Shown here: piece by piece, positions 29,246 through 42,105 of the stretch | How positions within the stretch are numbered: the first letter of the stretch is position 1 | Layout: every line of letters begins with the position of its first letter | Source of the DNA: Prevotella sp. | Lineage (GTDB): Bacteria; Bacteroidota; Bacteroidia; Bacteroidales; Bacteroidaceae | Assembly (NCBI GenBank): GCA_024697645.1 | Contig: JAILFH010000037.1 | Span: forward strand, 7,338 to 71,337 | Direction of reading: 5' to 3' | Length of the DNA: 64,000 nucleotides | Translations under genes and position numbers: made by a program | Notes under the pieces: model-generated | The model's input: only the letters and a program-made list of their open reading frames with translations | What the model was told of the DNA's origin: nothing | Database searches by the model: none

Positions 29246-29350
29246 TACTAATAATATATATGATGAGCACGCATTGGAAAAATGCTACTCGAGATAAAAC
29301 TAGTTTCAGTTATTTACAAATATTTTTCAAATTTAAATAAAATAGAGCTT

Positions 29351-32300
29351 ATGAAAAACTATTTACTAAACAAACCCAAATGGCTTGTATGGGTTGCAGC
29401 ATTTATAATGTCTGCCCTAACACTCCCACTACAAGCACAAAACGTGACCATTAAGGCCACGAATGGTAGTACTATTGCTGCCGTGAAACAAGGTGGTACG
29501 ACAGACTCTTTCTTTGCAGCAGGTGGTTTTGCAACTTGGCAACATGAACAATTGGCTATGGTGCTGACGGTCTCTGACGGAACTGCCCTGACACCTAACG
29601 GACAATTGGACAACCCTGCCAACAACCTCTTTACAGATGGAAGTTACGTGCAGATTGCCAAAGGTCGCGCCGATGGTGCAAATGTTTGCTATGTGTCACT
29701 GAGTTTGCCCAGTGGTTATCGTTTCACAGGTTATGAGATTAGTTTTAACAAACCATCTGATGTGTCCAAGGGAAGTGACATCTCTTTCAACACAAGTTAT
29801 ACCGAATCAACCTTTGGTGAGACAAACAGCACATTTGACACATACGCTACTTCTGCCTCAATTTATACTGGAGGAACAGCACAGACCATCTCCCGTACTG
29901 AGATGACCGAAGGCGAAATGAGTAACATTCTCTACTTCAAGTTAGAGAATCCTTCTAACAGACGCGCCCTGATTAATTTATTAAGCGCAGAGTTCTTCTT
30001 TACAGCCGAGGAAAGTTACACTCCTGTTATGCCAACAACTTCTGTGACATCTGTTAGCGCGGTAGACATTCCTTTCTCAACCAGTAAGGTAGACTATGGA
30101 AGTGTTCAAAACCGCTCATATACAATCAATGGCAGAACATATAACCGAATTAGCTACAGCTCTGCCAACGTGACTGACCTCTCTGCCAACTTCGTATTAT
30201 ACGAAGCCGAATCTATTGAAGATGGTACAGACATTGATGAAGTTCCTGGTAAAGTCGTGAAATACGATGCTGGAACTATTTCATCTGCAGGAGGATTCTT
30301 CAAATTGGGCCGTGAGAGTCAGGAGCAGATTTATTATTTAGAAACTCCTACTTTTGTTACTTTGTCCGATGGTACTAAGAATCCAGTGGGCTATCGTATT
30401 ACTGGTGCAGAGTTTGAATATAGTAGTTCATCTACATCAGGTGAAAATTCTTTCTACATATCATGTACATATAACGGTACGGTATATTATTTGAATACGG
30501 AAGGCCGTTTCACTACTACCCCAGTAGTCTGGGAAATTGATAGCGAGGGATACATTTCCAGCTCTGGCAATTATATTTATTGGAATAATAACTATGTAGC
30601 AACACAGACTACAAAGCCCGGTTCTTCTGAAAGATTTACCATTGCAGATAATGGACGTATTTATCAAACAGAATACACTAGGTACTATATTCGTTTCTAT
30701 GCTCAAGGTGACACTTATTATGGTTTAATAACTAATGATAATTATGGTGAATATGCAATAGCTGAAGAGATTCCTGTAACAAACGTTGGTGATTATACAC
30801 TTAAAATTTATGATAAGACAGGTACCACCTCTCAGAATATCACTGTGAACAGTGAGAACCCAAGTGGCAAGGTAAGCCTTACGGGTCTGAACAACGACGC
30901 TGTGAAGTTTGGCGTACAGGGTATTGGTCTTGTTCGCGCCACACTCACTTTACAGGCTCTCGACCCCTACCTCGACCATATGTCAGTAGTATGTCAGGAT
31001 AAAGTACAGACGGAGATTCGTCTGAGTCAGACTTTTACAGCAAGTGACTTCAGTGTTAGTGGTGGTGAGTTCTACTTCTACCTCCCCACCGATTGTGCTG
31101 GACATTCAGTTGCTATTACCTTCGAAGATCTCCAAAGTAAGTATTTCGATGAAACTTATACGGGCGGCAGCAGCAATCATACTTCGCGCATCAATTTTGT
31201 GAAGTCGGATCACTATAATGCCTTTGGTGCCTCACAAAACAAACTATATAATGATGTAGACGAGGCAGCCAATGCTCAGTTGGAACGACTGAAGGTAGGT
31301 ACTGTGGGTACTGCAGCATTCAAGTTTAACAATGCCGATGAGGTGGGTACCTCGGGTGGTACGCTTACTGAATACCCCTTCTCACTGGAGAATTATGCCG
31401 CTGCTCCTAACAATGGTGAGTTTACCAACATGGGATTCACCGTGTCAGAAGAAGATCAGAGCCTGACTCGTTACGTCTTCACTACAGACGAAACACGCTA
31501 CAACATTGCTCCTACAACAGCAGTTCAGCATCGTGCGTATGCCTTCTATGAGATGATTGTTCACGTGCAGACACAGACTTATGAGCCGAAGGTTAAATTC
31601 ACAAAGATTTACGACCCAACCCTCTATGGTACTGGCCAGACCGATGCTTTCTATGGCGCTAAGGTGACGGCCTATGATGGCAACACGCCTCCAAGGGCTG
31701 GTTACTCATCAACTACAGAGATCTTCAAGCACATTTCTAATGCCATTAAGAATGGTGTTGATGACTTCGGTAACACCGATGTGCCCAGCGATTCAAAGTA
31801 TATCCTCTATCTTGACTTTAGCGAGATGGCTGGTATCTATCAGACCACAGATTCCGAGCATGGTTCTATGGAAGACTTCTCGGCCACCAATGCCAAGAAT
31901 TGCCTAATTTTCATCCCAGTTGGTGCTTCTGCTCCGAACAACAATGTTGCCTATAAGATGGAGTCTGGTGGTTTCCACGCCGCACACGACATCGTGCTGA
32001 CAGACAAGGAACCATTCTATTCTCCTTACGACATCACCGTAGATGCAGCAAACAAGATTACATATAGCCGTCTGATTTCCAAGGATAGTTATGGTAAGGT
32101 TCAGAATGCTTCACTGATTATGCCATTCGCAGTTTCAGTTGACGGCGGTACGCACACCAACATCGACGGTTCAACCTTCTCATTGCACTATATGCAAGAA
32201 ACGGCAGCCCTGACTCAGATTGAAGGTAAAACCTATGCCTACTTCCCTGCTTTAGTCGATGTTACTACAACTAAGGCCAATACTCCTTATCTCGTGCAAC

Positions 32301-32833
32301 TGACTAAGAACAGCAGCGAAGATGGCGTTTCATTCGTCGTTACCCAGCCTGGTACAACCATCAAGGCTACTTCTGGAATGGGCAGTGATTACACATTCAC
32401 TGGTGCTACTTCAACAGGAACTGCTACTGAGGGAGACGCAGAGGGAACATACAACTTCACGAGTAAGGGAACCTACGCAGGTGCTAAGATTCCAAAAGCC
32501 GACAATGTATTCTACTTCGCAAAGAACCAGTTCGTGAATTCCGGTAATTTGGCCGAAGGATACAACTATGCTAACATTGCACCGTTCCGCGCTTACTTCG
32601 CCACATCGTCTTCTGGTGCTAAACTTTCTGCCTTCGATATCATCTTCGGTGAAGGTCAGGGCGACGTTCCGACAGGAATTCAGGCTGTTGATGCATCACA
32701 GTTCATCGATGTCAACGCACCTGTCTACGACCTGCAGGGACGCATGGTAGCACCTGCTTATCGCGAATTGGCTAGTAAGAAGTTGCAGAGTGGACTTTAC
32801 GTAGTTAACGGAGTAAAAATCATGATAAAGTAA
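29351..32833 (+). CDS. Module 1 large secreted protein with T9SS-type C-terminal domain, function unknown
   Basis: Signal peptide ..LPLQA/QNVTI; PFRAYF; CTD TGIQAVD..VYDLQGRMV..SGLYVVNGVKIMIK; paralogous to 33724 and 38314. Confidence 0.85.
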   Translation: MKNYLLNKPKWLVWVAAFIMSALTLPLQAQNVTIKATNGSTIAAVKQGGTTDSFFAAGGFATWQHEQLAMVLTVSDGTALTPNGQLDNPANNLFTDGSYVQIAKGRADGANVCYVSLSLPSGYRFTGYEISFNKPSDVSKGSDISFNTSYTESTFGETNSTFDTYATSASIYTGGTAQTISRTEMTEGEMSNILYFKLENPSNRRALINLLSAEFFFTAEESYTPVMPTTSVTSVSAVDIPFSTSKVDYGSVQNRSYTINGRTYNRISYSSANVTDLSANFVLYEAESIEDGTDIDEVPGKVVKYDAGTISSAGGFFKLGRESQEQIYYLETPTFVTLSDGTKNPVGYRITGAEFEYSSSSTSGENSFYISCTYNGTVYYLNTEGRFTTTPVVWEIDSEGYISSSGNYIYWNNNYVATQTTKPGSSERFTIADNGRIYQTEYTRYYIRFYAQGDTYYGLITNDNYGEYAIAEEIPVTNVGDYTLKIYDKTGTTSQNITVNSENPSGKVSLTGLNNDAVKFGVQGIGLVRATLTLQALDPYLDHMSVVCQDKVQTEIRLSQTFTASDFSVSGGEFYFYLPTDCAGHSVAITFEDLQSKYFDETYTGGSSNHTSRINFVKSDHYNAFGASQNKLYNDVDEAANAQLERLKVGTVGTAAFKFNNADEVGTSGGTLTEYPFSLENYAAAPNNGEFTNMGFTVSEEDQSLTRYVFTTDETRYNIAPTTAVQHRAYAFYEMIVHVQTQTYEPKVKFTKIYDPTLYGTGQTDAFYGAKVTAYDGNTPPRAGYSSTTEIFKHISNAIKNGVDDFGNTDVPSDSKYILYLDFSEMAGIYQTTDSEHGSMEDFSATNAKNCLIFIPVGASAPNNNVAYKMESGGFHAAHDIVLTDKEPFYSPYDITVDAANKITYSRLISKDSYGKVQNASLIMPFAVSVDGGTHTNIDGSTFSLHYMQETAALTQIEGKTYAYFPALVDVTTTKANTPYLVQLTKNSSEDGVSFVVTQPGTTIKATSGMGSDYTFTGATSTGTATEGDAEGTYNFTSKGTYAGAKIPKADNVFYFAKNQFVNSGNLAEGYNYANIAPFRAYFATSSSGAKLSAFDIIFGEGQGDVPTGIQAVDASQFIDVNAPVYDLQGRMVAPAYRELASKKLQSGLYVVNGVKIMIK

Positions 32834-32846
32834 GGAGGAAAACGAT

Positions 32847-33035
32847 ATGAAAAAAGTGTATATTAGTCCCGCTATTGAAATCGTCGCCTCACGACTGAAT
32901 CAACAAGTAATGCAAGGTCACAGTTTTGACTGGGCCGACGCCAAGGGAGATCCCATGGGCGGAGGCGGCGGTGGCGGAATGGTCATCACCAACGGCCAGA
33001 TGGAAGGTTCAAGCCCCAACATCTGGGAAGATTAA
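32847..33035 (+). CDS. Module 1 Gly-rich peptide with MKKxYxxP leader (62 aa)
   Basis: GGAGG 8 nt upstream of ATG; conserved in three copies with an in-frame indel. Confidence 0.8.
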   Translation: MKKVYISPAIEIVASRLNQQVMQGHSFDWADAKGDPMGGGGGGGMVITNGQMEGSSPNIWED

Positions 33036-33058
33036 CAACTCCAAAACATTGAGTGTCT

Positions 33059-33340
33059 ATGCGCGACAAAGCATTTCTCATCCTATGCACACTGCTGCTG
33101 ATACTGCTGTTCTTCTATTCTTCATCGAATGACGACAGTATTGCATCACCAGACATGCCCAGTGCCAACAATACGTCGTGGTTCGACCGACTTCTCGGTA
33201 ACGATGACGAGACCGCCGGCTTCGGTGAAGCAGGAGGTGGCGGCGGAGGGTTCTTCTTCAGTTCTTTCTACGGAGGAGTGGAGTTTCGCTTCAAGGTGAA
33301 GGACTACCGTGCATGGAACGACGACGATTTGTCGGAATAG
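33059..33340 (+). CDS. Module 1 single-TM Gly-rich microprotein (93 aa)
   Basis: Three copies differ mostly at synonymous sites; ATG at 33059. Confidence 0.8.
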   Translation: MRDKAFLILCTLLLILLFFYSSSNDDSIASPDMPSANNTSWFDRLLGNDDETAGFGEAGGGGGGFFFSSFYGGVEFRFKVKDYRAWNDDDLSE

Positions 33341-33357
33341 ACAAACTATACAAATGC

Positions 33358-33397
33358 AAGGAGCGGTGGGCCATTAGGCTCGCCGCTCTTTCTGTTT
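33358..33397 (+). terminator. Module 1 intrinsic terminator
   Basis: gagcggtgggcc-atta-ggctcgccgctc then tttctgttt. Confidence 0.8.
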
Positions 33398-33525
33398 AAA
33401 AACTTCCCAAACTTCCATACAAAAAAAATGACAACATTTAGCAATTAACCTATTGAAAGAACTTTATATCAATCACATTGTACTTATTGTTATAATTTTG
33501 CAACAAATATAACAAAATTAAACTT

Positions 33526-33723: not shown

Positions 33724-36700
33724 ATGAAAAATTATTTACTAAACAAACCCAAATGGCTTGTATGGGTTGCAGCATTTTTGATGTCTGCCCTTACACTCCC
33801 ATTACAAGCCCAAAACGTGACGATCCGCCCGGACAATGGTAGCCTTATTACTGGTCAGGCTGGTGGTAACACCGGAGACTCAGGTATTGGAAGAGGAATG
33901 TCTTCCATGTGGCGTCATGAGCAATTGCCCTTGATGATGACCACATCTGACATTGCCAACCTCACATCTGCCGGAGAACTGGCAGACCCCTCATGTGCTA
34001 TCGATGTGTACAATGGAAATCTGATCATTGGTGCTGGTCAGACTCAGACTTTCATGGTTGTGTCCTTGCCCAAAGGTTACCGCATCACTGGTTACACGCT
34101 GGTATTGCAGCCAAATGTCTATGGTAACAATATCCAGTTACATACTGGTAAGGATTCTTGGAATATCGGAACAGATGATCAGATGAGTTTCTATGAGACT
34201 CCTGCTTGGAGTTCTGGTAATCCATATATTAGACCTAATGGCACTGGCAATGACCTCAATACACATTGTACTTTGTTGGATCTTGACGAATATGATTATT
34301 CATACTATGCTGTTGCCACCGCCTCTGATGGCAGCACTGTAATGCAAAACAACAATGCAACTAACAGAGCCAAGGAATTTGTCATTTCACGTACCAGCCA
34401 GACTGAGACTGATATGACCAACCAACTTCACTTCTTCTTCGCCAGAGCATCAAGTCAATATGCTGTCACCATCAAGTCGTTTGAAATTCAGTTCACGGCT
34501 GAGGGAACTTTCAATGCAGAATTGACTCCTTCTGCTTCCGGACCGGCTGTTAGTATGGTTCAGTCCCCATTCTCAACAAGTAAGATGGATGTAGGTGCCA
34601 TAACCCTACAAAACGGCCTCTATACTTATGACTATACTGGTGTACGTGACCTTATTGCCTACAACTGGATATACCAAGACGATGCTATTAATGCAGGTAA
34701 GCCAGCCGATGTAGCAGTTAATAAGAATATTTATCCTGTTGTGGTTGACGGGAAGGGAGTATTTGCCTATGGTAATGACACCTATTTCGTTGAACCGCCC
34801 ACCACGATTACAACTGCTTCTGGCTGGGAATCACCCATTGGTTTCAGAGTTGTTGGCGCCCAGTTCGACTATCAGTGGGGTACACAAACAGCAGGTGGAA
34901 CCGTAACAATCGCGAATGGATACCGGATATCGGTAACACGGGATGGTACCACGTATTATTTGAATGACAATTTGGATTTCGTTAATGTCAATCAGAATAA
35001 TGCATTCGTATGGCAGATGGACGATTTAGGCAATCTCTATACTGGTACTGATTATAAAAGATACCTTGCCTGCTTTGGTAGTGGTAATGAGCGAGTACTC
35101 TCTTTAGGTTCTGCTGCATCTGGTGCCGAGGCAACTTGGAATCTGAGGGTAGCCGACAATGGTGATGTTTATTATCTTAGCGATGGTGGCAATACCTATT
35201 ATCTAAACTATCACTACATTCAGGAAGGATCAGCCTATCACTTAAGAGGCTATGTTACGAATGGTGCTACTACAAATCTGGCAACTGCCACTTCAACAGG
35301 TGGAACACATTCTGTTGAAGTACCTTCATTTACTCCTGGCGCCTATACGCTGAAGATATATGGTACAGATAAGAATACCGTGGTTAAGACTGTTACAGTA
35401 AACAGTGCCGCCGATGCAGGAACCTATCAACTGCTTGGTATTAACAACGATGCCGTGAAGTTTGTAATTGAAGGTCTTGAGGGAAACACTCAGGCCTTGG
35501 TGAATGTTTCATTGCAGTTGGAGGCTTTGGATCCTTATATTAACAGTATGGATATTGTCTGCCAAAGTGAGAAGGATGCCCAAGGCAAGCAACTGGAACT
35601 CATCCAGACGTTCACAGCCAATGACTTCTCAGTGAGTGGCGGTAAGTTCATCTTCTATATTCCGACGGACTATAGCAATCATGATTTAACCTTCACCTTC
35701 CGCGACCTCTTCAGCCAATATGGTGATGTAACCTATGGAGGAACAGGCAATGCACGCTATAGTTTTGTAACATCGCCATACTTTGAAACGGTTGATGGTA
35801 ATGGTGATAATGGTCTGTACGATTCAGGCTATGATCCAAATCATGCTTGCACAGATAAGATCTACACGGGAGTGGCTGGTAACATCCGCTTCAAGTTCAA
35901 CAACGCGGAAGAACTTACAGGCAGCGGTACTGGTACGAAAACACTGCAGGAGTACCCATTCTCTGTGTCAACTTATCTCGGCTCTACTGACCCCGATGGC
36001 AGTAGCAAGACCGGAGCGTTTTCAGATATTGTTATGAATGCCTCTAAGGAGGATCAGAAGAGTGGTATATATTATGTGTTTACTGCTGATGAAACCCGTT
36101 ACAATATTGCTCCCACAACTGCACTGGAGCATCGTAGTTACGCATTCTATCGCATGGATATTGAATTGGTTGCAAGACAATATACACCAAGTTTAGAGTG
36201 GAAAAAAGTCTATGATGTGACTTGCTATGCTGACCAGGATGAATCCGGCAAGGATATCGAAGCCAACAAGTCGATGTGGGGATTAACCCTGAGAGCAAAG
36301 GATACAGATGGTACTTATCCGGAAAGCGGCGGTTACCTTTCTGTAAAGGAGATTATGGATGCCTTCAATGGAGTTGAGACTCAGGCTCATGATGGTCCTA
36401 CCATTGGACAAGAAGGTGCCCCAGAATCGGCAGACCAGATTCTCTATGTTGATGGTAGCCTGTTGTCTACAATAGTTGCTAGTTCAGGTTACGATTTGGT
36501 AAGTCTGAGAGACGCACTTGCAAAGAATGTGCTGATCTACTTGCCGGAGAACATGACCTCGACAGCCGACAACTTTGCCTATAAGACAGCAAGTGGTTCG
36601 TTCATGGCAGGTAAGAACATTGTACTGACCGACCGCAAGCCTTTCTATGCTCCCTATGATATTCAGGTGCAGGCTGCTCCTAACAACATCACCTATACCC

Positions 36701-37461
36701 GCGATATCACTTGGCAGACCAATGGTCAGGTTACCAATGCTTCTATCATCGTTCCGTTCGAGATTGCAGTCGATGCAAATGGCGTGCATAGTGACAGTGA
36801 TGGCAATAAGTTCTCCGTTCATCAGATTCAGACTTCTGGTAGTTGTTTGAGCAATAACCCACTTACAGAAGACGACTATATCCACGTGCTCCCGCTTGTA
36901 GGCATGACGAAGACTGTTCCTAATGTTCCTTATGTTGTGAAAGTTGAAAGCGTGGCATCTGCCACGGGATCTACTCCTTCATTCATAGTGAAACAGACAG
37001 GTGCTCTGCTGAAGGCCACCAGTGGTATGGACGCCAACTATGAGTTCGCTGGAACTGCTGGTACTGGTATTGATGACAAGTCTTCAGTAACCTTCACTCC
37101 CACGGGTTCATTCTCAGGAAAGTTGCTTGCCAAGGCCAGCAATAACGTCTACTATTTCGCACACAATATGTTCCTTGACATTCAGACTCTGAACAGGGCT
37201 AATCTGTACGTTTACCCATTCCGTGCTTACTTCAGAACTAGTGGCGGTTCTAGTGCTAAGAGTCTGAACATCTTCTACGGAGAGAATTTCGACACAACGG
37301 GCATTAATACCGTTGAGGAAGAACCTGTAATGGTAGACCCGAATGCACCGGTCTATGATATTTACGGACGTATGGTTGCGACCACTGTTCGCGAGATTGC
37401 CGGCAAGAATCTGCCACGAGGCATCTATGTAGTTAAGGGTATTAAGTTTAATGTTAAATAA
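33724..37461 (+). CDS. Module 2 large secreted protein with T9SS-type C-terminal domain, function unknown
   Basis: Signal peptide nearly identical to module 1; PFRAYF; CTD TGINTVE..VYDIYGRMV..RGIYVVKGIKFNVK. Confidence 0.85.
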   Translation: MKNYLLNKPKWLVWVAAFLMSALTLPLQAQNVTIRPDNGSLITGQAGGNTGDSGIGRGMSSMWRHEQLPLMMTTSDIANLTSAGELADPSCAIDVYNGNLIIGAGQTQTFMVVSLPKGYRITGYTLVLQPNVYGNNIQLHTGKDSWNIGTDDQMSFYETPAWSSGNPYIRPNGTGNDLNTHCTLLDLDEYDYSYYAVATASDGSTVMQNNNATNRAKEFVISRTSQTETDMTNQLHFFFARASSQYAVTIKSFEIQFTAEGTFNAELTPSASGPAVSMVQSPFSTSKMDVGAITLQNGLYTYDYTGVRDLIAYNWIYQDDAINAGKPADVAVNKNIYPVVVDGKGVFAYGNDTYFVEPPTTITTASGWESPIGFRVVGAQFDYQWGTQTAGGTVTIANGYRISVTRDGTTYYLNDNLDFVNVNQNNAFVWQMDDLGNLYTGTDYKRYLACFGSGNERVLSLGSAASGAEATWNLRVADNGDVYYLSDGGNTYYLNYHYIQEGSAYHLRGYVTNGATTNLATATSTGGTHSVEVPSFTPGAYTLKIYGTDKNTVVKTVTVNSAADAGTYQLLGINNDAVKFVIEGLEGNTQALVNVSLQLEALDPYINSMDIVCQSEKDAQGKQLELIQTFTANDFSVSGGKFIFYIPTDYSNHDLTFTFRDLFSQYGDVTYGGTGNARYSFVTSPYFETVDGNGDNGLYDSGYDPNHACTDKIYTGVAGNIRFKFNNAEELTGSGTGTKTLQEYPFSVSTYLGSTDPDGSSKTGAFSDIVMNASKEDQKSGIYYVFTADETRYNIAPTTALEHRSYAFYRMDIELVARQYTPSLEWKKVYDVTCYADQDESGKDIEANKSMWGLTLRAKDTDGTYPESGGYLSVKEIMDAFNGVETQAHDGPTIGQEGAPESADQILYVDGSLLSTIVASSGYDLVSLRDALAKNVLIYLPENMTSTADNFAYKTASGSFMAGKNIVLTDRKPFYAPYDIQVQAAPNNITYTRDITWQTNGQVTNASIIVPFEIAVDANGVHSDSDGNKFSVHQIQTSGSCLSNNPLTEDDYIHVLPLVGMTKTVPNVPYVVKVESVASATGSTPSFIVKQTGALLKATSGMDANYEFAGTAGTGIDDKSSVTFTPTGSFSGKLLAKASNNVYYFAHNMFLDIQTLNRANLYVYPFRAYFRTSGGSSAKSLNIFYGENFDTTGINTVEEEPVMVDPNAPVYDIYGRMVATTVREIAGKNLPRGIYVVKGIKFNVK

Positions 37462-37476
37462 GGGAGGGCCACTCAT

Positions 37477-37662
37477 ATGAAAGCAGTTTATCAGAAGCCG
37501 CTCACAGAAGTGGTAGAATATAAGAACGAGAAGTTTTTCATGATTCAGTCGTACGATCACGCTGACTCTAAGGGCTATCCCATGGGCGGAAGCGGTGGTG
37601 GCGGCATGGTCATCACCAACGGCCAGATGGAAGATTCCAGTCCCAACATCTGGGAAGATTAA
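37477..37662 (+). CDS. Module 2 Gly-rich peptide with MKAxYxxP leader (61 aa)
   Basis: GGAGG 9 nt upstream; C-terminal half nearly identical to copies 1 and 3. Confidence 0.8.
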   Translation: MKAVYQKPLTEVVEYKNEKFFMIQSYDHADSKGYPMGGSGGGGMVITNGQMEDSSPNIWED

Positions 37663-37685
37663 CAACTCTAAAACATTGAGTGTCT

Positions 37686-37967
37686 ATGCGCGACAAAGCA
37701 TTTCTCATCGTGTGCACACTGCTGCTGATACTGCTGTTTTTCTATTCTTCATCGAATGATGACAGCATCGCATCACCAGACATACCCAGTGCCAATAACA
37801 CGTCGTGGTTCGACCGACTTCTCGGCAACGATGACGAGACCGCCGGCTTCGGTGAAGCAGGAGGTGGTGGCGGAGGGTTCTTCTTCAGTTCTTTCTACGG
37901 AGGAGTGGAGTTTCGCTTCAAGGTGAAGGACTACCGTGCGTGGAACGACGACGATCTGTCGGAATAG
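37686..37967 (+). CDS. Module 2 single-TM Gly-rich microprotein (93 aa)
   Basis: 10 synonymous versus 2 replacement codon differences to copy 1 (hand count). Confidence 0.8.
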   Translation: MRDKAFLIVCTLLLILLFFYSSSNDDSIASPDIPSANNTSWFDRLLGNDDETAGFGEAGGGGGGFFFSSFYGGVEFRFKVKDYRAWNDDDLSE

Positions 37968-37984
37968 ACAAACTATACAACTGC

Positions 37985-38024
37985 AAGGAGCGGTGGGCCA
38001 TTGGGCTCGCCGCTCTTTCTATTT
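37985..38024 (+). terminator. Module 2 intrinsic terminator
   Basis: gagcggtgggcc-attg-ggctcgccgctc then tttctattt. Confidence 0.8.
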
Positions 38025-38148
38025 ATACATATCTTAACCACGCAAAAATGTTTACATACTATGAACCTAAAACTATTAGGAAACCTTAATATTTTTCATA
38101 CCATATCAACAATTACTTTCTAACAGCAAACATAACATATTAGAACAT

Positions 38149-38313: not shown

Positions 38314-41300
38314 ATGAAAGCATCTTTACAAAACAAACCCAGTTGGTTTGTATGGGTTGCGGCATTTGTAATGTCCGCTTTGGTTCTACCTATACAAGCC
38401 CAAAATGTGACTATCAGTCCGAAAACGGGTAACCTCGTTGCTGCTGTGACAGAATCGCAGGAAACTGGTTTCGCGTCTGGTTATTCTTCTTTGTGGCGTC
38501 ATGAACAATTGGCGTTGACAATGGTAACTGCCGACAAGCCCGACCTAACAGAAAGTGGAGAAATAGCCGTACCTTCTGCCGACATCAGCACCTACAACGA
38601 CAATTTGATTCTTGTAGGCGGTATGGCTAGAAATATGTTCATCACTGTTACCCTTCCCAAAGGATATCGGTTCACAGGCTATAAACTCGTTCTCAGGGAC
38701 GACTTAAGAAGCAATCCCGATGTGACTGTGACTAAAAACAACACGGCTCACATGCTTGATGCTTCATCTGTTCTCCGATTCTATGAGACTGAAGCATGGG
38801 AAGAGGGTGTGAATATGGATCAGGGCGACCAAGTGCTTACTGATTACAATGCTGTGGCCACATCTGACACTGACGGTGACATCGCGATTGACGGAACAAC
38901 AGGAGAGACTTTCACCATTGAGCGCACAAGTCTGACGGAAGACGACATGAGCAACCAACTCTATTTCCGAATGACTCGTACAGCAGAATACTACGGTGTA
39001 ACTATCCAGTCATTCGAAATCTTCTTCACCGCAGAAGGAACCTTCACTGCCAATGTGCAGCCCACCTCTACAAACTCTACAGCAGTCAGCATGGTGAAGT
39101 CAGGATTCAATACCAGTAAGATTGATATTGGTGAACTTACTGCTCACACGAAAGATGGAGCAACATACTATAGTTTCGACTATGAGGAAGTAAAGGACCT
39201 CATAGCCTACAACTATCTCTATCAAGATGATGCTGTAGAGGATGGTGCACCTGCTGATGTAGCAACAACGAAGAACATCTACGAAATGCAGGTGAATGGC
39301 AACTATTATTATGGTTTGAAAAACGATACCTATTTCGTCGAGACTCCTGTTGAAATTACCAACTCGAGTAATAACGAGGTTCCCATCGGTTACCGCATCG
39401 TAGGCGCTTTCATCAATTATGCCTATGCTGACGGCACTACACCAGAAGAGTACACCATCAACGTCTATGACCGAACGGGCAAAACTGTCCAAAAGACAAT
39501 AACCGTGAATAGCAGTAATGCTTCTGGTAGTTACGATTTAGGACTAATGAACAACGATGCCGTTAAATTTGCCATCGATGGTGTCGACACTGGTGTCGCA
39601 TTGGTAACTATCGACCTGATGCTTCAGGCACTCGATCCCTACATTGACAAGATGGATATTGTGTGCAGTGATGGAAATGAATTGAGTCTTACAGAATCAT
39701 TTACTGCAGATGACTTCTCAGTGAGCGGTGGTGTATTTGAATTCTATGTACCTGAGAAGTATAAAGATGTTGACTTAACCTTCACCTTCTCAGATCTTTA
39801 TAGTAAGTACGGCGACGAGACATACTATGATGGAACTGGTCATGGTGCTGGCCGTTACAGTTATGTAACATCCGAATATTTCGTCCCTATCGATGGCGAT
39901 GGCGATAATGGGCTCTATGATAGTGCTTATAGTCCCGATGCCGACTATACAACGAAAGTCTACACTTCTGTTGCAGGTGACAAGGCATTTAAATTCAACA
40001 ATGCTGAAGACTTGAGCAATACGGGTAGCGGTACTGCAAGTGCACTGGAAGAATATCCATTCTCCGTTGCCACCTATACTGCTGCTGTTGCAGATGGCGG
40101 TACGGGCGGTAGTTTTGTAAAAGTCGTTCTGAATGCTTCTGGAAAAGATACCGACGAGATTAAGAGTTCAGGAACCTATTACGTGTTCACTGCCGATGAG
40201 ACCCGCTGGAACATTGCTCCGACAACTTCCTGGCAGCATCGTTACTACGCTTATTACACGATGGTTATCAACCTGAAGGCCAAGACCTTCGATCCTGTTC
40301 TAACATGGACGAAGATCTATGACAATACATTGTATAAGGACAATGGAACAGTAGCCACCAACAGCATGTGGGGTCTGACATTGGGAACAATCGATCATGA
40401 TACACAGGAATCCATGAAAGGTTACTTGATGACAGATGAAATCCAAACTGCCATTGCTGCTGAGATTGCTGACGAAAACATAGAAACACCCGATACTGCA
40501 ACTCAGATTCTTTACATTGATGCAAGCAACCTGTCTTCTGTTATCTCTACTTCAACAACTACGCTTGAGAACTTAAAAGATAGTCTTGCTACGAATGCCT
40601 TGTTCTATCTGCCCCAGAGCACGACATCAACACTCGACAACGTTGCTTATATGACTACGAGTGGAACATTCCGTGCAGGTAAGAATATTGTACTAACTGA
40701 CATGAATCCTTTCTATGCACTTTATGATATCCAAGTTGATGCAGCCAACTATGCATCCTACAAGCGCCAGATTACAAAGGATAGTTATGGTAAGGTTCAG
40801 AATGCATCGTTGATTATGCCGTTTATCGTTGCGGTTACCGACGGTACTCACACCAACATCGATGGTTCAACCTTCTCTTTGCACTATATGCAGGAATCGG
40901 CTGCACTGACTCAGATTGGTGGTACAACCTATGCTTACTTCCCCGAATTAGTCGATGTGACTACATCTACAGCCAACACTCCTTATCTCGTACAACTGAC
41001 GGAAAACAGTTCTGAAGATGGAATTTCATTTGTTGTAACGCAGAAAGGTACACTCATCAAGGCTACCACAACAATGGATGAAGCAGACTACACCTTCACT
41101 GGCGAGACCTCAACTGGAACTGCTACCATAGATGAAACTGAGGCTACATACACCTTCACGAGTAAGGGTACCTACGCTGGTGCACAGATTGCAAAGGAAG
41201 AGAATGTATTCTACTTCGCAAAGAACCAGTTCTACAATTCTGGAGACTTAGTCAGCAGTTACAGTTATGCTAACATTGCACCGTTCCGTGCTTACTTCAC

Positions 41301-41538
41301 TTCGGCATCGAGTAGCACCACTGCTAAACTCTCTGCCTTCGACATCATCTTTGGTGAAGGTCAGGGAGACGTGCCGACAGGCATTCAGGCCGTTGATGCA
41401 TCACAATTCATCGATGTAAACGCACCTGTCTATGATATGCAAGGCCGTATGGTTTCTCCCACTTATCGTGAGTTGGGTAGTAAAAATCTTCAAAAGGGCT
41501 TCTATGTAGTTAACGGAGTTAAATTCATTGTAAAGTAA
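38314..41538 (+). CDS. Module 3 large secreted protein with T9SS-type C-terminal domain, function unknown
   Basis: Signal peptide ..LPIQA/QNVTI; C-terminal ~250 aa nearly identical to module 1. Confidence 0.85.
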   Translation: MKASLQNKPSWFVWVAAFVMSALVLPIQAQNVTISPKTGNLVAAVTESQETGFASGYSSLWRHEQLALTMVTADKPDLTESGEIAVPSADISTYNDNLILVGGMARNMFITVTLPKGYRFTGYKLVLRDDLRSNPDVTVTKNNTAHMLDASSVLRFYETEAWEEGVNMDQGDQVLTDYNAVATSDTDGDIAIDGTTGETFTIERTSLTEDDMSNQLYFRMTRTAEYYGVTIQSFEIFFTAEGTFTANVQPTSTNSTAVSMVKSGFNTSKIDIGELTAHTKDGATYYSFDYEEVKDLIAYNYLYQDDAVEDGAPADVATTKNIYEMQVNGNYYYGLKNDTYFVETPVEITNSSNNEVPIGYRIVGAFINYAYADGTTPEEYTINVYDRTGKTVQKTITVNSSNASGSYDLGLMNNDAVKFAIDGVDTGVALVTIDLMLQALDPYIDKMDIVCSDGNELSLTESFTADDFSVSGGVFEFYVPEKYKDVDLTFTFSDLYSKYGDETYYDGTGHGAGRYSYVTSEYFVPIDGDGDNGLYDSAYSPDADYTTKVYTSVAGDKAFKFNNAEDLSNTGSGTASALEEYPFSVATYTAAVADGGTGGSFVKVVLNASGKDTDEIKSSGTYYVFTADETRWNIAPTTSWQHRYYAYYTMVINLKAKTFDPVLTWTKIYDNTLYKDNGTVATNSMWGLTLGTIDHDTQESMKGYLMTDEIQTAIAAEIADENIETPDTATQILYIDASNLSSVISTSTTTLENLKDSLATNALFYLPQSTTSTLDNVAYMTTSGTFRAGKNIVLTDMNPFYALYDIQVDAANYASYKRQITKDSYGKVQNASLIMPFIVAVTDGTHTNIDGSTFSLHYMQESAALTQIGGTTYAYFPELVDVTTSTANTPYLVQLTENSSEDGISFVVTQKGTLIKATTTMDEADYTFTGETSTGTATIDETEATYTFTSKGTYAGAQIAKEENVFYFAKNQFYNSGDLVSSYSYANIAPFRAYFTSASSSTTAKLSAFDIIFGEGQGDVPTGIQAVDASQFIDVNAPVYDMQGRMVSPTYRELGSKNLQKGFYVVNGVKFIVK

Positions 41539-41551
41539 GGAGGAAAACAAT

Positions 41552-41743
41552 ATGAAAAAAGTGTATATTAGCCCCGCTATTGAAATCGTCGCCACACAAC
41601 TGAATCAGCAAGTAATGCAAGACGGCCACAGTTTTGACTGGGCCGACGCCAAGGGTGATCCCATGGGCGGAGGCGGAGGTGGCGGCATGGTCATCACCAA
41701 CGGACAGATGGAAGGTTCAAGCCAAAACATCTGGGAAGATTAA
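41552..41743 (+). CDS. Module 3 Gly-rich peptide with MKKxYxxP leader (63 aa)
   Basis: GGAGG 8 nt upstream; one-codon insertion relative to copy 1. Confidence 0.8.
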   Translation: MKKVYISPAIEIVATQLNQQVMQDGHSFDWADAKGDPMGGGGGGGMVITNGQMEGSSQNIWED

Positions 41744-41766: not shown

Positions 41767-42048
41767 ATGCGCGACAAAGCTTTTCTCATCGTGTGCACAC
41801 TGTTGCTGATACTGCTGTTCTTCTATTCTTCATCGAATGACGACAGCATCACATCACCAGACATACCCAGTGCCAACAACACATCATGGTTCGACCGACT
41901 TCTCGGCAACGATGACGAGACCGCCGGCTTCGGGGATGCAGGAGGTGGTGGCGGAGGGTTTTTCTTCAGTTCTTTCTACGGAGGAGTGGAGTTTCGCTTC
42001 AAGGTGAAGGACTACCGTGCGTGGAACGACGACGATTTGTCGGAATAG
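41767..42048 (+). CDS. Module 3 single-TM Gly-rich microprotein (93 aa)
   Basis: 10 synonymous versus 2 replacement codon differences to copy 2 (hand count). Confidence 0.8.
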   Translation: MRDKAFLIVCTLLLILLFFYSSSNDDSITSPDIPSANNTSWFDRLLGNDDETAGFGDAGGGGGGFFFSSFYGGVEFRFKVKDYRAWNDDDLSE

Positions 42049-42065
42049 ACATACTATACAACTGC

Positions 42066-42105
42066 AAAGAGCGGCGACCCATTAGGTTCGCCGCTCTTTC
42101 TGTAT
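42066..42105 (+). terminator. Module 3 intrinsic terminator
   Basis: aaagagcggcgaccc-atta-ggttcgccgctcttt; two G-U pairs of copies 1/2 are Watson-Crick here. Confidence 0.8.

Follow-up and report, generated by a model that had tools for sequence, protein, structure and literature searches.

A rare, highly constrained single-helix microprotein gene at the end of a three-gene operon behind large secreted proteins in Prevotella sp.

As judged by sequence comparison, the open reading frame at positions 33059-33340 of the window (the whole 64,000-nucleotide stretch of Prevotella sp. DNA analyzed here) truly encodes a small protein, predicted to be bitopic and hereafter called the microprotein. Gene order and transcription signals place it at the end of an operon of three genes, and comparison with other loci shows it to be a facultative third member of the much commoner two-gene module cargo + peptide. 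Database searches characterize it as a rare, highly constrained family without known relatives, and its setting suggests that Prevotella-like bacteria of the rumen use it as an aid to protein export.

Results

Purifying Selection on Three Copies of the Microprotein Gene

The gene is present in the window in the following copies:

33059..33340, forward strand: microprotein gene copy 1 (93 aa), with the TM segment at residues 5-23, SWFDRLLGNDD, a Gly6 run and FFFSSFYGG-VEFRFKVKDYRAWNDDDLSE
37686..37967, forward strand: microprotein gene copy 2, amino acid identity to copy 1 of 98%
41767..42048, forward strand: microprotein gene copy 3, amino acid identity to copy 1 of 96%

An alternative GTG start 6 nt upstream would extend the copy 1 ORF to 95 aa. 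With a 35-nt probe from the 3′ part of the ORF, three copies and no more were detected in the window; a protein search against all 3.54 Mb of the assembly recovered just these three.

An earlier reading of the bare DNA (the sequence-only reading) had counted 10 synonymous and 2 replacement codon changes between copies 1 and 2, and again between copies 2 and 3. Our recount gave exactly these numbers; copies 1 and 3 differ by 12 synonymous and 4 replacement codons. Sorted by codon position, the three pairwise comparisons yielded 2/0/11, 3/0/9, and 3/0/14 differences; with 63 synonymous and 216 non-synonymous sites, neutral evolution would leave replacements this scarce with a probability of 4e-6 to 1.4e-5. 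When the same differences were read in the overlapping alternative frame at 33129-33299, the ratios of replacement to synonymous changes were 8:0, 11:1, and 7:1; as nearly all changes would be replacements in that frame, the 93-codon frame is the selected one. Direct alignment also upheld the claim that the final 35 residues are invariant, as they are identical in all three copies.

For a wider sample, dN/dS was calculated according to Nei-Gojobori from the DNA of 15 distinct microprotein coding sequences. Values were 0.05-0.08 among the three copies of the window, 0.09-0.12 between these copies and a 77%-identical relative (P0001, dS ~1), and 0.06-0.17 among six other loci. The purifying selection proposed from the window copies was thus borne out, with dN/dS of 0.05-0.17 in the unsaturated comparisons rather than values near 1. 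Five DNA versions of P0001 from different metagenomes are up to 5 synonymous changes apart without a single replacement, and between window copy 1 and P0001 the final 29 codons have accumulated 9-10 synonymous changes and no replacement. The 11 residues EFRFKVKDYRA are invariant across the compared sequences at an overall identity of ~50%, and Arg103 is constant in residue with five different codons in use. Codon comparison confirmed that purifying selection on the microprotein is strongest over the last 30 residues. The close likeness of the three window copies is partly due to recent shared ancestry or gene conversion, because a whole block of DNA is shared between them (see below); this does not account for the synonymous bias or for the conservation across genomes.

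The Microprotein Gene Closes a Three-Gene Cassette

Each copy is part of a cassette, which occurs three times in the order large secreted protein, peptide of 61-63 aa, microprotein, and terminator:

29282..32833, forward strand: large secreted protein 1 (1183 aa), with a signal peptide and a putative T9SS-type sorting tail, ...NAPVYDLQGRMV...GLYVVNGVKIMIK
32847..33035, forward strand: peptide gene copy 1 (62 aa), N-half MKKVYISPAIEIV...DAKG and tail DPMGGGGGGGMVITNGQMEGSSPNIWED, without a hydrophobic signal segment
33358..33397, forward strand: hairpin terminator of copy 1, -28.6 kcal/mol, with a T-rich tail
33724..37461, forward strand: large secreted protein 2 (1245 aa), Por_Secre_tail at 17.5 bits, under the cut-off of 27
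37477..37662, forward strand: peptide gene copy 2 (61 aa), with a different type of N-half, 85% identical to that of locus L018, and a tail 89% identical to that of copy 1
37985-38018 and ~42066-42099: equivalent hairpins 3′ of microprotein copies 2 and 3
38314..41538, forward strand: large secreted protein 3 (1074 aa), Por_Secre_tail at 20.8 bits, under the cut-off of 27
41552..41743, forward strand: peptide gene copy 3 (63 aa)

The gaps are short, 13-15 nt from the large gene to the peptide gene and 23 nt from there to the microprotein gene, and the hairpins after the three microproteins have energies of -25 to -29 kcal/mol. A motif scan of the cassettes placed six Bacteroidota-type TAnnTTTG promoter-like motifs in the spacers before the large genes and four inside the large genes, with none between the three genes of a cassette. 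A Shine-Dalgarno-like TAAGGAGGAAAAC lies 6-7 nt 5′ of the peptide ATG (32831-32849), at the same site in cassettes 2 and 3, and is kept in a paralogue on contig C120 of this genome; Bacteroidota are generally held to start translation without such a sequence.

All three large proteins have a signal peptide and end in ...VYDLQGR...GIYVVNGVKIIVK, that is, VYDLQGR...G[IV]YVVNG.K[IF].VK, and large protein 1 did not match Por_Secre_tail (PF18962/TIGR04183). Their family comprises more than 461 homologous clusters in public metagenomes, none of them named and none with a Pfam domain, and a PDB sequence search with large protein 2 returned no relative. Outside the signal-peptide region, no DNA similarity is left between the large genes of cassettes 1 and 2; those of cassettes 1 and 3 and of cassettes 2 and 3 also align at the 3′ end coding for the sorting tail (CTD) and in a few short internal stretches.

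The order of cargo, peptide, and microprotein is kept in every homologue with retrievable context, even at ~30-50% identity and including the most distant set (L022-25). The upstream cargo itself differs widely: besides proteins of 1074-1280 aa we found a 514-aa protein in L019 and still others in L010 and L022. In the window the cassettes are neighbored by GH43, aroB and a menE-like ligase. Several rumen Prevotella relatives (L017 11949-16952; L066-L071) have the arrangement rpsB, tsf, [cargo-peptide-microprotein], FAA-family hydrolase, porU, porV. In the present genome, which does encode PorV, the rpsB-tsf-porU-porV slot (L075) is filled by unrelated genes and not by the triad; being lineage-specific and missing here, the linkage to porU-porV is not strong evidence. 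In the most distant triad (L022, 1535-1645) the genes for peptide and microprotein are separated by a long hairpin with a T-run, and this microprotein may be transcribed separately or under attenuation.

The Peptide Tail and the Microprotein Form One Evolutionary Unit

The peptide family is far more common than the microprotein. It comprises 59 clusters and is present in 76 of 401 family genomes. Its members have 44-71 aa with the pattern MKKxYxKPxxE...[NG][LI]W[DE] and are encoded 7-126 nt after a gene with a T9SS-type sorting tail; among the peptide loci sampled in other family genomes (L037-L065 set), ~21 of 28 directly follow such a gene. With a KD19 maximum of 0.65 the peptide has no signal sequence and looks cytoplasmic. 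This genome contains four cargo-peptide pairs lacking the microprotein, on contigs C120 and C39:

L034 7240-7413 and 12674-12841; L035 4973-5143; L036 7555-7740: peptide genes of cargo-peptide pairs without a microprotein

The microprotein is thus absent from all four other pairs of this genome, and it is equally absent from the pairs at the 28 sampled peptide loci elsewhere. Its presence goes along with the type of peptide tail. Microprotein-linked tails consist of a Gly run followed by [MQ]VI[TE]NG[QK][MIL][EDQ]G...N[IL]W[ED]D, whereas peptides without a microprotein have an acidic tail, e.g., LNFEDEDSDDDTNWSSKNIWDE; the microprotein gene is present at every VIxNG-tail locus, at least 16 distinct ones, for which the DNA reaches far enough downstream. 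On C120, the proteins encoded just after two of the microprotein-less pairs (L034 11346-12590 and L035 2459-4888, both on the reverse strand) carry dockerin-like tandem repeats (DVNGDGxITIADVTALVNIILNK), which are unusual for Prevotella-like genomes.

The DNA shared between cassettes has sharp limits:

32934..33398, forward strand: block B (465 bp), comprising the peptide tail from the DAKG hinge, the microprotein gene and the terminator

Block B of cassette 1 is 94% identical to 37561-38025 in cassette 2, although the large genes of these two cassettes do not align. The microprotein-less paralogue on C120 is near-identical to cassettes 1 and 3 across the CTD, the spacer and the peptide N-half, and its homology stops abruptly after the D-A-K-G codons. 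The two halves of the peptide differ in what their identity follows. The N-half tracks the CTD: window cassette 2 and L018 are 85% identical in the N-half and 95% in the CTD, and for window cassette 3 and C120 the values are 89 and 93%. The tail tracks the microprotein and the genome: its identity is 86-96% among the window cassettes and drops to 43-50% against L018 and 25% against C120. As N-half identity follows the CTD and tail identity the microprotein, the peptide tail, microprotein, and terminator are, by these comparisons, one evolutionary unit that has been recombined onto different cargo + peptide-N-half units. The microprotein is therefore locked genetically to the peptide tail and not to the large protein, a point that goes beyond the earlier reading. 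Co-occurrence and the tracking of CTD by N-half could nevertheless reflect linkage together with a recombination hot spot at the DAKG-coding DNA, and not interaction.

Distribution of the Microprotein

A search of 5.8 billion proteins returned only ten microprotein matches, and an exhaustive profile search of 1.84 billion representatives returned sixteen, some of them fragments or chimeras. The present genome is the only one of the 401 family genomes with the microprotein; among 185,579 species genomes we found five loci in four rumen Prevotella/Prevotellaceae MAGs. The ORF is intact at every locus found. The distant relatives P0012, P0016, P0017, P0020, and L072 share the layout of TM segment, SWxDxLLG-like helix, acidic stretch and Gly run, and their C-termini follow the pattern YFSS[IF]F.[DG][FV]EF.F[RK][VI]K[DN]Y[RK]A[LMW].DD[DN]L. 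In three database proteins, P0010 (with a YgcG-like N-terminus), P0013, and P0015, the partner sequence or the frame switches exactly at the Gly-codon run. These proteins probably arose by chimeric assembly or by frameshift errors in the GGN repeat and were not counted as real microprotein variants.

In model searches no Pfam or NCBIfam family matched the microprotein or the peptide; PADLOC gave no matches to either, and PHROGs gave matches at noise level only. The Glycine rich protein family (PF07172) scored 16.6 bits (E = 0.013) against the microprotein, below the gathering threshold of 30 bits and thus short of membership, and this score comes from the signal-like N-terminus and the Gly run. 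No relative was found in a PDB sequence search with the microprotein profile, and literature searches on small T9SS partner genes yielded no description of the microprotein module. An alignment had suggested that the peptide and the microprotein are paralogues; this candidate was rejected, as hhalign paired the Gly run only, with a probability of 2%.

Architecture and Predicted Topology

The microprotein has a single hydrophobic segment, located at the N-terminus, with values of 2.3-2.9 in a 19-residue Kyte-Doolittle window, a hydrophobic run of 16-19 residues, and K or R immediately before it. The remainder beyond this segment has a net charge of -7 to -13 and a pI of ~4.1-4.4. Sequence and hydropathy agree with the layout given in the sequence-only reading, i.e., an N-terminal TM helix, an acidic linker, poly-Gly, an alternating strand, and a W-acidic end. 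The protein would consist of a basic N-terminus of 4-8 residues, one signal-anchor helix, and a very acidic C-terminal part of ~70 residues. By the positive-inside rule we infer an N-in/C-out signal anchor or a signal peptide; judging from charge and hydropathy, the C-terminal part most likely faces the periplasm.

The second of these options, a cleavable Sec signal, would make the product a soluble periplasmic or released, acidic, Gly-rich chain of ~70 residues, which could act as a holdase or ligand for the sorting tail or the T9SS. The layout of n-region and h-region fits such a signal, as do the small residues found after the h-region in the window copies (YSS-S) and L017 (VKS-N). In L072 (IIQQQ) and P0012 (MMQQR) the h-region is followed by Gln, recalling the Bacteroidota Q-rule for Gln after the signal h-region (PMC10653852). 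Several relatives, however, have no acceptable residues at -1/-3 (LII/QQQ, FVKD/Q), and a signal peptide would usually have a shorter hydrophobic run than these 16-19 residues. We regard cleavage as unlikely, and the microprotein is described below as membrane-anchored.

Along the C-terminal part, a short amphipathic SWxDxLLG helix and an acidic stretch are succeeded by a Gly run, then by a beta-hairpin rich in aromatic residues, with the consensus F[FY][FL]SS[FL][YF][GA]G-[VFI]EFRFKVKDY, and finally by the acidic tail RA[WM]xDDDL. The microprotein profile showed one recurrent resemblance only, a weak one, to FN3 repeats at their E-F loop and F strand (SSLTNGTEYKFKVRAVN versus SSFYGGVEFRFKVKDYRAWN). 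It covers ~20 residues, and the matches come from summing 6-8 repeats in large proteins and are non-significant per single copy. The Pfam fn3 model does not match the microprotein, which does not contain the full seven-strand domain. The weak likeness to the F strand, non-significant for a single copy, fits a beta-strand or beta-pairing element.

Structure Predictions

AlphaFold2 was run on pseudo-complexes, for which natural same-frame read-through fusions from locus L018 were used with stops read as Gly; the run on CTD, peptide, and microprotein used paired fusion rows from L072, window cassette 2, L012, L026, and L019. The peptide-microprotein prediction reached a mean pLDDT of 44.5 and a pTM of 0.20 without confident contacts, and the prediction including the CTD a mean pLDDT of 40.5 without usable contacts. 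Just one low-confidence hairpin, YLSSLF-AG-FEFRFK, was formed in the microprotein. In the sequence-only reading, a membrane-tethered strand was suggested to complete the fold of a partner, or else the protein to be an immunity or retention factor. A real protein under selection with the proposed layout has stood up; the proposed mechanisms were neither borne out nor refuted at these pLDDT values.

Discussion

A Possible Accessory Factor for Secreted Cargo

We tentatively read the microprotein as an accessory factor, anchored in the membrane N-in/C-out and serving the cargo/peptide module, a reading that we consider plausible though somewhat short of probable. In this proposal we infer the topology, the binding partner, and the link to secretion alike. 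The invariant C-terminal hairpin and the acidic tail would bind a conserved partner via strand pairing. The C-terminus of the microprotein is invariant while cargo and sorting tails vary (mean identity of the CTD columns 37%), which points to a conserved element as the more likely partner; the variable cargo is, on this comparison, an unlikely one. The leading candidate would be the hairpin of the co-inherited peptide tail, followed by an invariant component of the T9SS. The peptide could act as a bipartite adaptor, with its CTD-matched N-half bound to the cargo end and its tail to the microprotein, so that the peptide, and through it the C-terminal end of the cargo, would stay at the inner membrane while export or transfer to the T9SS takes place. 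A peptide without a signal and a microprotein with a periplasmic C-terminal part would, however, reside in separate compartments, unless the peptide is exported otherwise or the topology is inverted. A more specific version, in which peptide and microprotein form a cargo-handling device for type-A-like T9SS substrates, the peptide tail docking on the microprotein as its receptor, appears doubtful to us. It would provide certain large cargo proteins with a staging step of their own at the inner membrane, and the step would be modular, as recombination at the DAKG hinge can move the receptor and tail block from one cargo gene to another.

A small peptide gene followed by a gene for a small single-TM protein is also the classical layout of a bacteriocin and its immunity protein, and the 62-aa product could be a bacteriocin-like or RiPP-like precursor that is cut after the Gly run. 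Class II systems resemble the present genes in having a ~60-aa peptide with a Gly motif followed by a membrane protein of ~90-110 aa; here, moreover, the Gly run precedes an 18-residue, highly conserved peptide tail, which is inherited with the microprotein as one block. Unlike these systems, the peptide has no match to a double-glycine leader or to any NCBIfam/Pfam leader or bacteriocin family, and the putative mature tail is acidic and without Cys, not cationic. The contexts examined contain no C39-peptidase ABC exporter, peptidase, modifying enzyme or RRE protein, and no RRE-dependent maturase is found among the neighbors (GH43, aroB, menE-like ligase; in relatives rpsB, tsf, FAA hydrolase, porU, porV). 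Finally, the peptide family has an obligatory place behind T9SS cargo (~21 of 28 sampled loci and all loci studied here), for which bacteriocin genes would have no reason. We consider this explanation improbable.

Even less credit is due to the idea that the microprotein tail imitates a T9SS sorting signal, in miniature or as a decoy, or that peptide and microprotein together are a split CTD. It arose from MAFFT, which repeatedly set CTD ends GIYVVKGIKFNVK under GFYLSSLFAGFEFRFKVK and the N-terminal parts of CTDs under the peptide, and from a short G-x-[VY]-[IV]-x-N-G likeness between the peptide tail and the CTD. hhalign did not support mimicry, giving non-significant probabilities of 0.2% for microprotein versus CTD and 0.35% for peptide versus CTD over 11 columns, and Por_Secre_tail had no microprotein match at E<=1. 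A functionless ORF carried along by its neighbors, the copies being alike through recent duplication or gene conversion, might be expected from a block that is far more alike between cassettes than the large genes and includes conserved non-coding spacer and terminator DNA, but gene conversion gives no bias toward third codon positions, the ORF stays intact, and the protein, notably its last 30 residues, is preserved across genomes at saturated or near-saturated dS, so that dN/dS well below 1 across independent genomes effectively refutes this explanation.

Little is understood of how T9SS cargo is handled on its way from the Sec translocon to the translocon of the outer membrane. The module is a testable entry point into this step, as it comprises three short genes with clear motifs and natural variants with and without the microprotein in one genome. 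In Prevotella of the rumen and gut, which are central to fiber digestion, it might represent an accessory layer of export or of display on the cell surface. The widespread pattern of cargo plus tiny peptide has here a rare three-gene elaboration, whose third member is very strongly constrained, 11 of its residues having stayed unchanged where synonymous divergence is saturated. Genes of fewer than 100 aa are missed by gene callers and family databases, and this case illustrates that they are detectable by counting synonymous and replacement changes between paralogues.

Comparison With Known Systems

T9SS cargo genes clustered with a dedicated partner that is needed for secretion or anchoring are known from Flavobacterium johnsoniae (SprB/SprF) and Porphyromonas gingivalis (PG1035/PorP) (PMC10202324). 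The present cassettes resemble the type B CTD cargo with PorP/SprF in that small dedicated genes come after a cargo gene with a T9SS-type tail. PorP/SprF proteins, however, are outer-membrane beta-barrels of ~300 aa that serve type B CTDs, whereas the tails here are type-A-like and the partners are a soluble peptide of ~60 aa and a single-helix protein of 93 aa without PorP/SprF similarity. With this size, one helix and no Pfam/NCBIfam match, the microprotein does not belong to the PorP/SprF family. For type A sorting tails, neither a review of T9SS effectors (PMC10202324) nor our literature searches revealed cargo-specific partner genes.

In donor-strand complementation, as in chaperone-usher pili and the type V pili of Bacteroidota, a strand completes the fold of another protein, and the alternating strand VEFRFKVKDY of the microprotein could similarly fill or extend the sheet of a partner. 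It differs from these systems in that the microprotein has no pilin domain, and no partner with a missing strand was found.

Small proteins encoded beside effectors are also familiar from other secretion systems, namely the Eag/DUF1795 and DUF4123 adaptors of the T6SS and the Lap/WXG100-like partners of LXG toxins in the T7SS. The secretion system, the folds and the sequences all differ from those described here. The likeness lies in small, effector-linked proteins that are swapped together with effector parts and bind a defined end of the cargo, an interaction that for the microprotein is putative.
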